From: a virus
Length of the DNA: 64,000 bases
Strand: one strand, 5' to 3'
Virus record (IMG/VR): IMGVR_UViG_3300045988_069061
Shown here: piece after piece, positions 20,410 to 64,000 of the stretch
Layout: the number at the start of each line of letters is the position of its first letter
Position numbering within the stretch: the first letter of the stretch is position 1
Program-made: the position numbers and the translations under genes
The notes under the pieces: model-generated
The model's input: the letters and a program-made list of their open reading frames with translations, nothing else
Databases searched by the model: none
What the model was told of the DNA's origin: nothing

Positions 20410-20758
20410 ATAATTTAGCAAAATCTTCCTTGACTTTAGCTTTTATCTATTTTAATATGTTAAGATATTCCTTATATTCATTAATAACTTCAGAATCAGA
20501 AGTAAGATTTTCTGAATAGCTATTATATGAATTGATTAAATCAAATTCTTCATCGACTGTAAGGAATCTTCTAACTATAGCTTTTACACAATCTTTGTAA
20601 TTAGGCTGTCCATTTAATAATACCTAGATAAAACTATAGTAAGTTTTTTCTTTTATGGTATTGTCTAAATCAAGTACTTCAACACTAATTTCTTTTATAT
20701 CATAGTTATAGTAATAAGTACCGTTCCCAAGTTTTTGGATTGTCTAAGGATAAACGTC
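20410..20758 (-). CDS. small hypothetical protein overlapping the 3' end of the RT gene in another frame; candidate DGR accessory gene
   Basis: ATG ~20756-58 (MDVYPQTIQKLGNGTYYYNYDIKEISVEVLDLD...), two in-frame TAGs, ends at TGA ~20410. Its position directly after the RT gene is suggestive only. Confidence 0.3.
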
Positions 20759-21980
20759 CATTTGTATTCTATTCGGCTCTAACATAAGGTGTTATTTTAA
20801 AATTTATAGGAAATTTGTATCTAAGCAAAGAATAGTGTAATCTCCTATTCTTACTTTTAAAATAGTAGGGTTTATTGTTATACATGAAATGCACTCGAAA
20901 ATGATTGTCATAATCAATAACCTCTACAATGTGAATATATTTATTATAAAACTTAGATATGTTAACTTCTTTTCCATTCCAGTTAGAGAATTTCAATCCA
21001 GTTAACTCCTCTACCTTTCTCAGCAAGTTCTTAGAGTTGCAAAATTTCATCCATCCAAAATAAGACCTCATTCTTCTATTCAATTCATCTTTATCAATCT
21101 TATTCTATTTATATAGATTTATAAGCCTAAACATCCTCATTTTTATAGATTTTCTCAGTAGAACATGAGTATGATAGAATTTATAGCCTACGAAATCAAT
21201 ACCTCTGCTTTCTACAGGGAATATTCGATAATTAGGCTTCAACTCTAGGTTAAGAACCTGTTTCAAATATAGTTTTATAGATACTAATACATTTCTCAAA
21301 TAATTCTTGTCATTACCAAGAATCACAATATCGTCAGCATATCGAAAGTAGTACTTACATTTTAACTCCTCTTTTACCCAGTGGTCAAAATATGTCAGAT
21401 ATAAATTTGCAAAGAATTGTGATAGATAATTTCCAATAGGAACTCCCTTCGCTGAATAAATTATTTCTTTCAACAGTTTTAATAGTTTTTTATCCTTTAT
21501 CTTTCTCTATAACATTTCGTATAAAATGTCGTGAGTTATAGAAGGATAGAATTTTTTTATATCCATTTTCAAGCAATACTTTGTTTCTTCTGGATGTTTC
21601 TATAACACCTTAAACAAATCATACTCTACTTTATGAATACCTCTATTTCGTATAGAGGAATATGTTTGGTCTATAAATATACTAGTCCAAATAGGCTCCA
21701 TAATATTCATTATAGCATGGTGAGTTATTCTATCTGGATAGTATGGAAGTCTAAAGATTAATCTTTCTTTAGGTTCGTATATTATAAAGGTACTATATTC
21801 AGAGGTTTGATAAATCAAATCCCTTAACTTATCGGATAATTCCTTATTTTCTTTTAATCTATTCTTATCATGCTGCTTGATTCCACATCTAATAGACTTA
21901 TTTCTTCTGGCTTTATCGTCAGCTAGTTCGATGTTATCTTCAGCGTATACTTTCTCGTGCAAATATCCTACACGTTTCAA
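20706..21980 (-). CDS. DGR-type reverse transcriptase (~424 aa) with in-frame TAG codons
   Basis: ORF-track fragments 21600..21980, 21105..21473 and 20769..21083 are in one frame and separated only by TAG codons (cta at 21600, 21105, 20769). Motifs: ITHHAIMNIMEPIW...SSIRNRGIH (RT motifs 1-2), GVPIGNYLSQFFANLYL (QG motif), YFRYADDIVILG (YxDD). The frame ends at TAA 20706-08. Confidence 0.8.
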
Positions 21981-22120
21981 TTTTTTATATATTTCATCGG
22001 AAGCGTTCGAGAATTAACCTACTAACACCCTTCATTCAACACTACGTTATCTTTTGCCTAGAGGCAAGGATATTACTTAGCAAACTAAAAAAAAATAATA
22101 AAATGTTTCTAAATATATAA

Positions 22121-40633: not shown

Positions 40634-40650
40634 AACTATTAATTTTGGCG

Positions 40651-40722
40651 TTGCCCTACTAGGATTCGAACCCAGACTAAATGATTTAGAGTCATCTGTG
40701 CTGACCATTACACCATAGGGCA
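40651..40722 (-). tRNA. amber suppressor tRNA, anticodon CTA, Gln-tRNA-like (U1-A72)
   Basis: Minus-strand sense tgcccta-tg-gtgt-aatggtca-gcac-a-gatga-CTCTAAA-tcatt-tagt-ctggg-ttcgaat-cctag-tagggca-a: a full 72-nt cloverleaf. The anticodon loop c-t-CTA-a-a reads UAG. Confidence 0.85.
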
Positions 40723-54636: not shown

Positions 54637-54700
54637 TGGGCTATGGTAGTCACATCAGATTTTGGTTCTGAGAGTCCAGGTTCGAGTCCTGGTAGCCCAA
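54637..54700 (+). tRNA. tRNA-Gln-like (anticodon TTG) with a truncated D-arm region; preceded by a T-loop-like hairpin and a duplicated 5'-acceptor sequence at 54601-54636
   Basis: Perfect acceptor tgggcta/tagccca. Anticodon arm tcaga-TTTTGGT-tctga. T arm ccagg-ttcgagt-cctgg. Only 11 nt lie between the acceptor and the anticodon stem. Upstream: tgggctt plus hairpin gcttaac-ggttcgagagaata-gttaagc. Confidence 0.4.
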
Positions 54701-55536: not shown

Positions 55537-55660
55537 CGGACCTATAGCTCAGCCAGGTCAGAGCAACTAATTATGAGTCAGATAGGGACGTATCCCCTCA
55601 AGCTTATACCTTGTAGAAAGGGTAGTTGGTCGCACGTGGGTTCAAACCCCACCGTCCCTA
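55537..55660 (+). other. pair of tRNA-half-like elements: a 5' half (acceptor ggaccta plus D arm gctc-agccaggtca-gagc) and a 3' half (agggacg...gtggg-ttcaaac-cccac-cgtccct) that do not assemble into one canonical cloverleaf
   Basis: D-arm and T-arm consensus elements and a perfect 7-bp acceptor (agggacg/cgtccct) are present, but no 5+7+5 anticodon arm. Lies directly upstream of the HNH endonuclease gene. Confidence 0.3.
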
Positions 55661-59445: not shown

Positions 59446-59530
59446 ATCCGTGTGGGTGAATGGTTTAGCCATCAGTCTGCAAAACTGAAAAGAGAAATCT
59501 TTAATGAGGGTTCGAATCCCTCCACGGATT
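59446..59530 (+). tRNA. class-II-shaped tRNA (long variable arm, Ser-like scaffold) carrying anticodon GCA (Cys)
   Basis: Perfect acceptor atccgtg/cacggat. D arm ggt-gaatggttta-gcc. Anticodon arm tcagt-CTGCAAA-actga. Variable hairpin aaaga-gaaa-tcttt. T arm gaggg-ttcgaat-ccctc. 85 nt. Confidence 0.55.
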
Positions 59531-60307
59531 CTAATTTTAAATTTAAAAATATGGCATATATTTATTGCATTACAAATTTAATTAATAGAAGCGATACGTA
59601 GGAAAAACTACTACTTCTATAGAAGAGCGCTGGAAGGAACATTGTTATGACTTTTAGAAAGAAAGATGCAACAAAAGACCTTTATATGATACCATGAATA
59701 AGTATGGTGTTGAGAACTTTATGATAGAGGAATTGGAATATGTAGATAGTAACTCTGAATTATCTGAAAGAGAAATCTATTGGATAAAAGAGCTAGGAAC
59801 TTATGGTACAATGCCTCTAAAGGAGGAGATGGCACTATTCTATACAATCATAGTGAAATTGTAGAATTAGCTAGATTGGGATATACTAGTTCTTAGATAC
59901 AAGAAAAAATAGGGTGCTGTAAAGACACTATTTACAAAGTTTTGAAGGCAAATAATATAAAAATTAGAAAAAGTAACGCAAAGTTAATTGCTTAGTATGA
60001 CTTAGCAGGTATTCTTTGGTTCCAGAGAAGCTTAGGAATGGTTAATTAATAACGGAATTACTGACAATAAATCTGCATAGAGTCATATTATAGGATGCTG
60101 TAAGAATAAAACCAAATCATAGTATGGCTACATTTGGAAATATCTTCCAGAGCCTATTTAATCTTTAAATCACTGTTTCGACATTTTCAGTCTAAATGCC
60201 GTGTCTGGAGACGTTACCAACCAGTCGTGCTATACGGTTAGAATAGTCCGTGCCTCACTGGTGATAGAGGCATCCCTGGGTAGCGGATGTAAAGTAGCTG
60301 CCAATAT

Positions 60308-60386
60308 CGTGGAGTAGAGAAGTGGTCATCTCGCTAGGCTCATAACCTAGAAATCGTCATAAACGGTTCGAATCCTACCTCCGCAA
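60308..60386 (+). tRNA. initiator-like tRNA-Met (anticodon CAT) with a C1-A72 mismatch; ~6 extra nt in the variable/T-arm region
   Basis: Acceptor cgtggag/ctccgca: 6 of 7 positions pair (one G-U) with a C1.A72 mismatch as in bacterial tRNA-fMet. D arm gaga-agtggtca-tctc. Anticodon arm ctagg-CTCATAA-cctag. The T stem flanking the ttcgaat loop is poor. Confidence 0.45.
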
Positions 60387-60630
60387 CGAAACTCCTTTTG
60401 TGGCTCTGAATTAGATTAATTATTAACAATTTTAAACTTTGATGTTATGAAGAAAGTAATTAATGTTGTGAAGAAAGCTGCTAAGTGGTATTTTGAACAG
60501 AGTTCTAAGAGCTATACATGGTTAGTTTCTGGAACTATTCCGCCTCCTTATAGAGGTCTAGAGTAAAGATACTACTAAAAGGTAAGTACCAAAGGGGTAC
60601 TTATCTACACCCGTGGAGAAAATTAACTAT

Positions 60631-61205: not shown

Positions 61206-61278
61206 TGGGCCGTTAGCTCAAATGGCTAGAGCGCTGGTTTTGCACACCGGAAGATAGGGTTCGAGTCCCTGCGTGTCC
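61206..61278 (+). tRNA. tRNA-Ala-like (anticodon TGC) with a poorly paired acceptor stem
   Basis: D arm gctc/gagc. Anticodon arm ctggt-TTTGCAC-accgg. T arm taggg-ttcgagt-ccctg. Acceptor gggccgt vs cgtgtcc pairs at only 4 of 7 positions. Confidence 0.45.
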
Positions 61279-61473
61279 ACAAACTTTATTTAAAAAATTA
61301 TGAAAGTATATGTAGTAAATTATCACCCAGCTAATGCTCCTCAAAATTATGAAACTGATTGCCAAATCTTCTTAGACAAGAAACAGGCAGAGAAGTATAA
61401 AGAGGCTAAGGAAAAAGAGTTTCCTATTAGCTGGGGAGGAGAGTATAATCATTGTAAACTAATTAAAAAGCAT

Positions 61474-61989: not shown

Positions 61990-62276
61990 GTGTAATACAA
62001 CAAGTTTATTTAGCTGAAGCTGGTTATTCTATTTACATAAAGGGAATTAAACCAGATAATGAATGTTCTGGTGAGATTACTATAAATGGTAATCCCACTA
62101 GATTAGAGAGAAAAGAACGCTATCATATTGATGGCAGTATGCTTGTAACTGACAATTACCACATTCCTATGGACTTCATAATTAATTTTCTACAGGCCAA
62201 TGGTTGTATAGAACAGAAGGAAGACGGTAAGAGATACGTTGTATTAAAGGAAGTAGAATTTAAGCTTAATAAATAA
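61986..62276 (+). CDS. hypothetical protein (96 aa)
   Basis: ORF-track entry. ATGA overlap with the neighbouring gene. Confidence 0.45.
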   Translation: MSVIQQVYLAEAGYSIYIKGIKPDNECSGEITINGNPTRLERKERYHIDGSMLVTDNYHIPMDFIINFLQANGCIEQKEDGKRYVVLKEVEFKLNK

Positions 62277-62854
62277 TGTTGTCAATTCTATACAACGAAT
62301 ACAAAGAATGGGGATGCCCAAACTGTGGCTGTGATTCGGCTATTAGTGGTTGTTTCTCTGGTGGAGGAGTTACTACTGGGACTTGCAGGCATTGTAAGTT
62401 AACCTTTGAAATAAGGAGCGACAATGGAATAGGCACAGTACGATATGGCTCTCATCCAGAAAATCCATCAGACCCTAAATCTGAATACGTAATGGAATAT
62501 GCTCGTCGGATTCCTCATCCAAGGTCTGGTATTCCAGCCTGGCATTGGGAACCAAAGGATGTTCGTCCAGAGGAAGGAGAATACTGGAGTTCTAGAGGTG
62601 TTGGATATGATTTATCTGGATTCGTAAAAACTAAAGCTGCTGGTGAACGTATATTAGCTATGGTGCATGAGGTTTTGGGAACTGATAAGTGTGAGACTTA
62701 TTTAGACTATAGACCTAGTGAACCAACTTGGATTCAATTTAAGTTCCAGTCTAGCGAGTTTGACTTAGAAAAGTTGGATAAGCTATCTAGAGAAGCTGAT
62801 AGAGTAGTTACTAAGGAAATATTAAAACAGTGTTTACATGGCAAAAGTAATTAA
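62276..62854 (+). CDS. hypothetical protein with an N-terminal Cys cluster (192 aa)
   Basis: GCPNCGCDSAISGCFSGGGVTTGTCRHCK. Confidence 0.45.
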   Translation: MLSILYNEYKEWGCPNCGCDSAISGCFSGGGVTTGTCRHCKLTFEIRSDNGIGTVRYGSHPENPSDPKSEYVMEYARRIPHPRSGIPAWHWEPKDVRPEEGEYWSSRGVGYDLSGFVKTKAAGERILAMVHEVLGTDKCETYLDYRPSEPTWIQFKFQSSEFDLEKLDKLSREADRVVTKEILKQCLHGKSN

Positions 62855-63089
62855 TAAGACAATCACAACACATCTTACAAATATGAAAGATGTAGCTGAG
62901 ATTGTAAATTGGTTCTGTGACGAGGAAATGGAGCCTGGAACTATAGTTCAGAGGTACGGAGATGCTTTAATTATCATTGGTGGGCGTAGCGGTCTATGCT
63001 ATCCTAAGCTGTTTACTGTTGAGGATACGCGTCGTTTGCTTACTTGTAAGGTCACAATTTTGCCTCCTGGCTCAACTATAATGCTATAA
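62838..63089 (+). CDS. small hypothetical protein
   Basis: ORF-track entry. Confidence 0.4.
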   Translation: MAKVINKTITTHLTNMKDVAEIVNWFCDEEMEPGTIVQRYGDALIIIGGRSGLCYPKLFTVEDTRRLLTCKVTILPPGSTIML

Positions 63090-63131
63090 TTTCTTTTCTC
63101 CAGTTTTCTAATCAGAGATAAACTGGAACAT

Positions 63132-63677
63132 GGGCCTACTTGGATTTGACAGGCGATTACGAATTATAAGGACGTGTAGAGCGCAATCTCTTTAAACGAA
63201 GAAAACAAATAACTGCAGAAATTGCACCTGTAAGAATGGCAGCCTAAGCTGCTGACTTATTAATAGACAATATTAATCAAGTCGGGTTACTGGAGAGACC
63301 TAGAAACAGAAGAGGTTAGGTATACCGCTAATGGCGTGCGGACGATAATCCGTGGTATATCTTTAATCAGAACACTCTAAGAGTTAGTAAGACTGAATCT
63401 CCGCTGTCTTTAAACAGAAGGGATCTGCGTGGTTGACTCACCACAAACACTCGTTTTCCTATTTTAGCGTTAAAAAGTAGGTGGTGGAGAGTTGACTTTG
63501 GTCAGCCCAGTTTGGTGGTTTGTAAACTAGTTTCTAAAACTCGATAGTGTAGTTTAGAGTAAATCTAGTAAAACTATCTAAATGCTAGAACTCACTAGCT
63601 GATGTAATAAAAATGAGACGCACGTTATCCTTGTAATAAGGGTTGTTTGGACACGGGTTCGACTCCCGTTAGGTCCA
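63132..63677 (+). ncRNA. ssrA: tmRNA (ssrA)-like gene
   Basis: 5' end gggcctacttggatttgacaggcgattacg resembles the tmRNA 5' consensus GGGGCTGATTCTGGATTCGACGGG. 3' end acggg-ttcgact-cccgt plus taggtcc pairs with the 5' gggccta as a tRNA-like acceptor/T-arm domain. An internal short ORF ...AEIAPVRMAA then TAA at 63215-63247 could be the tag peptide. About 546 nt, longer than typical; the internal pseudoknots were not verified. Confidence 0.5.
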
Positions 63678-64000
63678 CATGACAGGGCTATAGCTCAACC
63701 GATTGGGATGTAGTTTAACGGTTAGAACAAGAAACTGATAATTTCTAGACGGCAGTTCAACTCTTCCCAACTAACACTGTAAATAATATGTAGAAAATTT
63801 CTGAACAAATCAAACAACAAGTAAAAATCCTCAGAGAAATATGGTACTGGGATTAAATATCGAGGCTGTGGTGTAATGGCTTGCATATCACACTGTCATT
63901 AAAATTAATTAAACTTATCTGTGAATCGAGAACAATCTCTTAAATTGTATTATGAGAATCCTAACCACTGTAAGGAATGTGGTAAGGTAATCGAAGTACT

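Follow-up and report, generated by a model that had tools for sequence, protein, structure and literature searches.

Does a phage carry a working ribosome-rescue RNA of its own, and if so, how much may the body of that RNA change while its working parts are kept? The question is raised by positions 63132-63677 of a 64,000-nt stretch of viral DNA (IMG/VR record IMGVR_UViG_3300045988_069061), the whole of which is called the window here. A sequence-only reading had described the locus as a gene resembling transfer-messenger RNA (tmRNA). Comparison with the covariance models of Rfam and with homologues confirms that the phage encodes a one-piece tmRNA. The bacterial tmRNA model, RF00023, matches 63132-63680 on the plus strand from end to end (model positions 1-374) with 72.7 bits and an E-value of 2.4e-26, which is above its gathering score of 47 bits, and the match was reproduced in a local Rfam scan of 63050-64000. 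The model of permuted tmRNAs reaches 30.6 bits on the same gene, below the gathering score of 47. The locus is probably (roughly 0.85, judged from its sequence) a functional ssrA gene of a phage of about 190 kb from the human gut, which is TAG-recoded and has a distantly crAss-like terminase.

The core parts of a tmRNA are all present: an acceptor stem with alanine identity, a T arm, helix P2, a tag reading frame, helix 5 and a ring of pseudoknots. The gene and the parts that lie outside the ring are as follows.

63132-63677, plus strand: the whole one-piece tmRNA (ssrA) gene, with 546 nt when counted to the discriminator A; from the RF00023 match and homologues
63132-63138, plus strand: 5' strand of the acceptor stem, GGGCCUA, with G3 at 63134; pairs with 63670-63676
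63150-63176, plus strand: 5' strand of helix P2, made of P2a (63150-63158), P2b (63164-63171) and P2c (63172-63176)
63178-63191, plus strand: hairpin AGAG/CUCU at the position of pseudoknot 1 (PK1), with no conserved second stem
63215-63247, plus strand: tag frame, with resume codon GCA at 63215-63217, ten codons for AEIAPVRMAA and the stop UAA at 63245-63247
63238-63253, plus strand: helix 5, GGCAGC/GCUGCU, six pairs, all paired, with the stop codon in its loop
63621-63649, plus strand: 3' strand of helix P2; pairs with 63150-63176
63653-63669, plus strand: T arm ACGGG-UUCGACU-CCCGU, five pairs, 100% paired, with two compensatory pairs in the divergent relative L190
63670-63677, plus strand: 3' strand of the acceptor stem, UAGGUCC, with U70 at 63674, and discriminator A63677

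The gene is not a single occurrence. The 31 nt at its 3' end are found exactly in 33 IMG/VR contigs, many of them 185-192 kb long, and looser patterns added the divergent relative L190 and a variant, L117. The full-length copies represent 24 distinct sequences and are all 514-574 nt long; therefore the 546 nt are correctly delimited and the length is a property of the lineage. In the alignment of these homologues, the first ~70 nt and the last ~110 nt are almost invariant and the middle is variable. The only homologues in GenBank are two unannotated human-faecal fragments. Bacterial genomes gave one match, which is the same phage (94-98% identical) binned in a metagenome-assembled genome (MAG) of an 'uncultured Clostridium sp.', and apart from this binned copy the 5' 21-mer of the gene has no match among 185,579 bacterial species representatives. 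In L117 (7390-7949), a type-b tmRNA, unrelated sequence stands where the 3' acceptor strand should be, and a run of C is expanded; this copy is read as dead or as a chimera made in assembly.

For many phages ssrA is the site of integration, and they take along part of the gene. The locus could be the remnant of such an integration site, or a captured host ssrA in decay. Many small IMG/VR contigs do carry tmRNAs of bacterial type, sometimes with smpB alongside, and look like prophage ends, and L117 has lost its 3' acceptor strand. The present gene, however, is full length and lies within a tRNA array in the interior of contigs of ~190 kb, its 5' end is absent from the bacterial representatives except for the binned phage copy, and it combines a nearly invariant core with compensatory substitutions in its helices. 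Such an origin is given next to no credence.

The functional reading begins with the tRNA-like domain. The acceptor stem has seven base pairs, all of which are paired in the 24 sequences (100%); the seventh changes from A-U to G-C in L190. The G3:U70 pair is invariant (24/24). Recognition by alanyl-tRNA synthetase (AlaRS) is keyed on G3:U70 together with a discriminator A (PMC3968760). The T arm and the seven-nucleotide 3' strand that pairs with the 5' end, both noticed in the sequence-only reading, are where it had placed them. Helix P2 contributes a further 22 pairs (100% paired), three of which are compensatory, all in P2b. The D-loop analogue, which a tmRNA has instead of a D arm and an anticodon arm and for which the pattern UGGAUUYGAC was the yardstick, is UUGGAUUUGAC, aligned to the RF00023 model. 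The terminal CCA is absent from the DNA, as the discriminator A63677 is followed by CAU; the same is true of 13 of the 14 tRNAs that ARAGORN calls in the island.

The tag frame reads GCA GAA AUU GCA CCU GUA AGA AUG GCA GCC UAA and gives the product (A)AEIAPVRMAA, exactly the ending that had been read from the letters. The resume region, AAUAACU followed by GCA, is aligned by RF00023 to AUAAuU and GCa of the model, so that the context of the resume codon also holds up. In all 23 close homologues, the tag has ten codons and ends in VRMAA, and the stop is UAA or UGA. Three versions occur (AEIAPVRMAA, ATYSEVRMAA and AAYSEVRMAA), which differ in their N-terminal halves AEIAP, ATYSE and AAYSE. In one group of homologues, GCG UGA replaces GCC UAA, which is a synonymous change of the last codon together with a change of stop. 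Upstream of the tag is an A-rich linker in which insertions and deletions of 1-2 nt shift the frame of any longer open reading frame (ORF); this leaves the GCN codon as the necessary start of translation, as in tmRNAs. The stop is never UAG. This is in keeping with the presence of an amber suppressor in the cell, but it says little because UAA is the usual tmRNA stop. The divergent L190 (8282-8795) has a frame that ends in YRMAA-UAA and thus shares the RMAA ending; no obvious GCN resume codon follows its AAUAAU. A protein-coding reading of the region was rejected, as no stop-free stretch exceeds 76 codons in any frame, even when TAG is taken as sense. A scan for promoters and terminators near the gene found nothing that exceeds background; the two 'terminators' it returned are helix 5 and the hairpin of module 1.

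Downstream of helix 5, the predicted body of the RNA is a ring of pseudoknots as in ordinary tmRNAs, enlarged by three modules. Its elements are listed here.

63256-63281, plus strand: hairpin after helix 5, the first element of the ring; ten pairs, 98% paired, two of them compensatory (A-U to G-C, in ten sequences)
63284-63403, plus strand: expanded PK2-like pseudoknot; stem GGGU/ACCU at 63284-63301, and loop UGGAGA (63291-63296) paired with UCUCCG (63398-63403)
63318-63362, plus strand: variable module 1, a stem-loop closed by AGGUAUACC/GGUAUAUCU
63404-63481, plus strand: variable module 2, made of two hairpins, and downstream of it a PK3-like H-type pseudoknot with stem 2, CCUAUUUU/AAAGUAGG, at 63458-63481
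63493-63504, plus strand: small hairpin UGAC/GUCA, which is GACC/GGUC in other types
63511-63582, plus strand: long stem around variable module 3 (63511-63521 with 63571-63582); 11 pairs, 95% paired
63522-63570, plus strand: variable module 3, a PK4-like pseudoknot; four of the five pairs of its closing helix are compensatory
63584-63617, plus strand: last hairpin, GCUAG/CUAGC, 97% paired, with a possible loop pairing CUCA/UGAG

The three pseudoknots of the ring (PK2-like, PK3-like and that of module 3) are backed by compensatory changes and by inspection of each sequence type. The PK2-like element measures ~120 nt from end to end, with module 1 and a small hairpin inside it. Its long-range helix of 6 bp, formed between the loop and the strand after CUGAA, is kept in all seven sequence types through changes on both sides, as UGGAGA/UCUCCG, UGGGGA/UCUCCA, GGAGAA/UUCUCC, AGGAGA/UCUCCU (in L003), GGGAGA/UCUCCU and GGAAGG/CCUUUC (in L190). 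The PK3-like element is ACGU-U-CUCCA-ACGU-AAA-UGGAG in other types and pairs CUUCA with UGAAG in L190 (C-G to U-A); stem 2 is longer in the type found in the window. The H-type pseudoknot of module 3 is formed by AGUAGGAGG/CCUCUACU with GCUGG/CCAGC in L001, and by AAGCGGA/UCCGCUU with GCUAGAU/AUCUAGC in L002, whose sequence is unrelated to that of L001. For the loop pairing CUCA/UGAG of the last hairpin, there is zero covariation and the fourth pair is broken in nine sequences.

The three variable modules, which are stem-loops or pseudoknots and occupy fixed positions in the ring, make the RNA 1.4-1.5 times as large as is usual. Module 1 occurs in five sequence types of 29-75 nt, each with its own closing helix, in which five pairs are compensatory; module 2 occurs in three types of 53-89 nt; and module 3 ranges from 46 to 63 nt. 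Before these homologues were compared, the length had raised the suspicion of an insertion or of wrong ends, and one could picture a self-splicing intron or similar mobile element inside an ordinary tmRNA gene. Rfam leaves 185 nt unaligned within one helix, and introns are reportedly dense in the large crAss-like Zeta group. The excess is, however, split over three modules of 29-89 nt, each with its own closing helices, at fixed positions in all of the 514-574-nt homologues; covarying tmRNA helices bracket the modules; and no ORF is longer than 76 codons. In the scan of 63050-64000, neither a group I or II intron nor any other credible family was found at E <= 10. The residual matches there (wcaG with 22.7 bits against a gathering score of 42, cross-matches of the permuted-tmRNA models and a pestivirus 3' untranslated region at E 4.2) are weak or sub-threshold and were taken as chance or cross-matches. 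An inserted element is very improbable, and the ends of the gene stand as drawn.

Further support for the tmRNA fold came from covariation. The structure was built by hand in window numbering and then counted on the alignment of the 24 distinct sequences (A2). RNAalifold, applied to the whole alignment, was set aside: the pseudoknots and the misaligned modules led it to a nested fold that is implausible in part. MAFFT columns are likewise unreliable in the swapped modules; therefore, each sequence type was inspected directly. Changes on both sides are found in 23 of the 127 pairs, against 10.6 +/- 1.9 in column shuffles (none of 500 reaches 23) and against 2-9 pairs in a control in which the partners were slid by 1-3 columns. 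The compensatory pairs fall in the acceptor stem (one), the T arm (two), P2b (three), the hairpin after helix 5 (two), the long-range helix (two), the closing helices of modules 1 and 3 (five and four), and others. The near-invariance of the core, together with compensatory changes in its helices, points to purifying selection on structure.

Several points weigh against a functional tmRNA. As it was from the window sequence that the structure was built, the proportion of cells counted as paired, 90.5% for the 24 distinct homologues, is inflated. Most of the core helices never vary, and hence give no evidence of covariation, and the single divergent L190 supplies almost every compensatory change seen in the acceptor stem, T arm and P2. 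The minimum free energy of the pseudoknot domain, computed for nested folds, is no better than that of shuffled sequences (z of -1.3 on the plus and -1.4 on the minus strand), a comparison that is uninformative. No smpB gene was found in the 64-kb window (best tblastn E 0.32; the positive control worked), and none of the best 80 viral SmpB loci lies on a contig of the lineage, in a pattern-limited scan of low power. The link to TAG recoding is a co-occurrence in one lineage. The tag keeps the terminal AA and has Met in the position of Leu, and it is LAA that ClpX binds at the tag end in E. coli (PMC3968760); whether an MAA-ending tag would act as a degron is uncertain. Finally, no second stem of PK1, the most important pseudoknot in E. 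coli, is consistent between variants in a search for loop complementarity.

A hairpin is all that this RNA has in place of PK1. The earlier expectation of pseudoknots thus holds downstream of the tag and fails at the PK1 position. Rfam flags the pairs of PK1 stem 2 as non-canonical, and a pairing of the PK1 loop with AUUGC was rejected as chance, as the site differs by variant and gives just 3 bp in others. The hairpin itself is longer in L190 (7-8 bp against 4 bp in the window). A hairpin can replace PK1 in E. coli with tagging retained (PMC3968760), and some classes of tmRNA have few or no pseudoknots (PMC3968760, PMC3985003); PK1 is typical of tmRNA and not strictly defining.

Some of the same features can be read in the opposite sense, namely that a modified tmRNA interferes with host trans-translation or re-routes it, by competing for SmpB or by adding a VRMAA tag that host proteases do not see. 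The MAA ending in place of the LAA bound by ClpX (PMC3968760) and the degenerate PK1 would suit such an RNA. As no phage smpB was found in the searches just described, the RNA must draw on the SmpB of the host, and a molecule of phage DS6A that consists of the tRNA-like domain only may titrate SmpB (PMC4131195). A pure decoy, however, needs none of what is kept across the variants here: the complete mRNA-like domain, the resume context, helix 5 and the stop. Conservation extends to the Ala-Ala end of the tag, and hairpins swapped in for PK1 still support tagging in E. coli (PMC3968760). Interference is therefore considered unlikely, and a working rescue RNA is the preferred reading.

The middle of the gene has been exchanged in blocks. 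Between the window and the contigs L007 and L015, the flanks are 95-100% identical; 63332-63531 is only 43-62% identical and the next 100 nt are 82% identical, and identity returns to ~100% inside the 3' part of the tmRNA gene. When five segments were typed in the 24 sequences, eight combinations were seen, and two of the tag types were found in each of the four possible pairings with two of the module-2 types, which points to recombination within the gene. Each cassette type comes from several independent samples. Pseudoknots PK2-4 are interchangeable, dispensable in vitro and variable (PMC3985003, PMC3968760), so relaxed constraint together with the mosaicism of phages is a sufficient explanation of the cassettes. 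Diversifying selection on the pseudoknot domain is possible. Mutagenesis by a diversity-generating retroelement (DGR) was rejected as the source of the variable domain, since whole modules are replaced with insertions and deletions and the substitutions are not adenine-specific. A second divergent patch lies at about 62232-62531, in the ORF 62276-62854, where genomes that are otherwise 95-100% identical around the tmRNA are 75-82% identical; this ORF has no match in Pfam or PHROGs.

ARAGORN, also when run with -m, calls no tmRNA in the window. Within the lineage, it calls just the 515-nt variants L002, L014 and L028, and assigns them the tag VQQKDDRATVLNLKAKG. This tag was rejected: it comes from the variable pseudoknot domain, is not conserved and conflicts with the conserved ATYSEVRMAA frame. 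It is likely to be a source of wrong database annotations. On the IMG/VR loci that were fetched, ARAGORN made 86 tmRNA calls, some of them ~490 nt long. A survey of huge phages and Pharokka-based studies relied on this program, the standard finder of tmRNAs when phages are annotated by pipeline (PMC7162821, PMC12291355, PMC13503771). As the present lineage is missed or mis-tagged by it, phage tmRNAs in gut viromes are probably under-counted.

The genome around the gene is recoded. Under the standard bacterial code, the whole window holds four ORFs of at least 250 amino acids. Once TAG is taken as a sense codon, long minus-strand genes appear in bases 1-40000, the longest with 2172 amino acids, against a maximum of ~300 under the standard code; reading TGA as sense brings no improvement there. 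According to PHROGs, these genes include the terminase large subunit (TerL), a portal, a tail protein and a reverse transcriptase. The late genes of the phage thus read TAG as sense. In bases 40000-64000, the standard code reads about as well, and this part holds the tRNA array (18 tRNA hits by Rfam, 14 by ARAGORN), in which the tmRNA lies on the same strand. The sequence-only reading had counted roughly 20 tRNAs, a suppressor tRNA and an RlmN-like methylase, and had seen in them a toolkit for takeover of translation. The tRNA number is close to this count, the suppressor is present, and the methylase is weakly supported; a phage-borne takeover toolkit is, on this sequence, a plausible hypothesis. 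The tmRNA had also been placed at the end of the island. This impression arises because the window stops at 64000: another tRNA follows, and related contigs continue with Ile(gat, in the same place), Asp, Thr, Glu and Leu tRNAs 3' of the tmRNA. The neighbouring features are given below.

40650-40722, minus strand: suppressor tRNA with anticodon CUA, which reads UAG; found by ARAGORN (with the label 'Pyl') and Rfam, not part of the tmRNA gene
63704-63775, plus strand: next tRNA, with anticodon GAU (Ile-like), 26 nt past the tmRNA; 43.8 bits in Rfam, with mismatches in the acceptor stem
20706-22013, minus strand: reverse transcriptase, phrog_1423 (E 1.5e-111), intact only with TAG as sense

TerL is 25-28% identical to TerL of Crassvirales over ~80% of its length and 43-44% identical to that of two unannotated human-faecal phage contigs. 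A large 'Zeta' group of crAss-like phages has been described, with genomes of 145-192 kb, suppressor tRNAs, late-gene recoding, blocks of tRNAs and DGRs (PMC7886860, PMC12386605). The present genome provisionally fits this group, as compared by published descriptions only, and its reverse transcriptase is probably the DGR-type enzyme described for large crAss-like phages. As to the host, the copy in the 'uncultured Clostridium sp.' MAG is weak evidence, and the crAss-like TerL points instead to Bacteroidota.

Other observations concern the island itself. Four tRNA-like genes are found by Rfam and not by ARAGORN (54637-54700, 55584-55660, 61207-61279 and the one at 63704-63775), and two ARAGORN calls are unusually long (Cys, 86 nt, and Met, 80 nt; 59446-59531 and 60308-60387). 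An ORF of 266 amino acids at 46040-46840 matches positions 103-324 of phrog_24834, of unknown function, and has no hit in Pfam or NCBIfam. The radical-SAM motif CxxxCxxC (GCPMECKFCDVPKFGF), at about 46087, lies in another frame than this ORF, in a frame that ends at a stop; the apparent split of the 'RlmN-like' gene may stem from a frameshift or a sequencing error, or may mark a pseudogene. At 52114-54087, plus strand, inside the tRNA island, a protein of 657 amino acids combines an SPFH/Band-7 (flotillin-like) domain with a long tail that is rich in Ala, Glu and Lys and resembles a coiled coil. An inverted repeat, CCAGTTT...AAACTGG, at 63100-63126, with a 7-bp stem and a 13-nt loop, stops 5 nt short of the 5' end of the tmRNA and may serve the ORF upstream of it (62838-63089) as a signal for processing or termination.

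Compared with the bacterial tmRNAs of RF00023 (E. coli, Thermus thermophilus), the phage gene has the same order of parts, a tRNA-like domain with G3:U70 and A73, the T loop GUUCGAnUC and a long helix 2 (PMC3968760). Also shared are a structured element upstream of a single-stranded resume region (AUAAnU before GCN), a tag of ~10 codons that ends in Ala-Ala, a stop in the loop of helix 5 and the ring of pseudoknots that leads back to helix 2. In contrast, the phage gene has 546 nt (514-574 in the lineage) against the 374 positions of the Rfam model, a hairpin only in place of PK1, a PK2-like pseudoknot of 120 nt with inserted hairpins, and three variable modules. Its tag ends in VRMAA and not in ALAA, CCA is not encoded and no smpB is adjacent.

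Phage tmRNAs have been reported before, in the mycobacteriophage Bxz1 group and Bacillus phage G (PMC4131195, 2014) and in huge phages, where they are accompanied by SmpB (PMC7162821). These are likewise full tmRNAs on large phages rich in tRNAs, presumed to supplement rescue. The present gene differs in its lineage (distantly crAss-like TerL, TAG-recoded, human gut), in the larger size of its RNA and in being undetected by ARAGORN, and, in contrast to the huge phages, no SmpB was found with it in the searches made here. Two papers on the large crAss-like group (PMC7886860, PMC12386605) and a preprint on recoding (10.1101/2021.08.26.457843) do not mention tmRNA. Among other tmRNAs in IMG/VR, those of L140 and L164-L167 are also phage-borne and some are longer than bacterial ones; they have ~490 nt and the tags EEVELAVAA or EEAEMLLAA. 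Forms of ~490 nt occur on viral contigs of 248-296 kb. The tmRNA of L073 (317-736, 420 nt, on a 251-kb contig) has the acceptor GGGCCUG...CAGGUCC in common with L190. All of these can be called by ARAGORN and have unrelated tags, and nhmmer finds no similarity to them outside the tRNA-like domain. The DS6A molecule and the two-piece tmRNAs share the tRNA-like domain with the present gene, which differs from them in being unpermuted and having a whole mRNA-like domain. Phage tmRNAs and long tmRNAs are therefore not new in kind; what is particular here is a lineage for which no report was found, the size, the PK1 hairpin, the exchange of cassettes and the failure of ARAGORN.

How would such an RNA work? 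It would be transcribed together with the tRNA array. RNase P of the host would cut its 5' end, the 3' end would be trimmed and the CCA-adding enzyme of the host would finish it. Host AlaRS would then charge it with alanine through G3:U70 and A73, and the charged RNA would bind host SmpB and EF-Tu and enter stalled ribosomes. Translation would resume at GCA 63215, append AEIAPVRMAA and terminate at UAA, a stop that should escape the amber suppressor of the phage. The steps of processing, charging and tagging are taken from established tmRNA biology (PMC3968760, PMC3985003), and from them we infer a role in ribosome rescue via the SmpB and AlaRS of the host. The likely gain is more rescue capacity when decay of host mRNA and amber suppression push ribosomes to the 3' ends of messages. 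Suppressor tRNAs do yield substrates of trans-translation (Ueda et al. 2002, as cited in PMC3985003).

A more specific role, which is advanced tentatively and is on balance doubtful, is that the oversized tmRNA is an accessory of the genetic-code switch. Here, with the amber suppressor tRNA switched on, ribosomes would pass the UAG stops of host and early messages and reach the 3' ends of the mRNAs, or would stall at UAG if release factor 1 is antagonised. They would be relieved by a rescue RNA of high capacity provided by the phage, whose tag frame, ending in UAA or UGA, is immune to the suppressor and which leaves a phage-specific mark ending in VRMAA. The exchange of modules between otherwise identical genomes might in turn stem from selection that acts on the body of the RNA, such as pressure to evade a host factor that recognises it, and not from neutral drift; this is raised as a possibility.

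Phage tmRNAs are known, yet little studied, and the present one belongs to an abundant human-gut lineage in which a stop codon takes on a new meaning during infection. As suppressor tRNAs load trans-translation in laboratory work, a phage that carries both a suppressor tRNA and a tmRNA is a natural system in which to ask how rescue and code switching are connected. The recombining, modular ring of pseudoknots is, in addition, a natural experiment on how much of the body of a tmRNA is replaceable.

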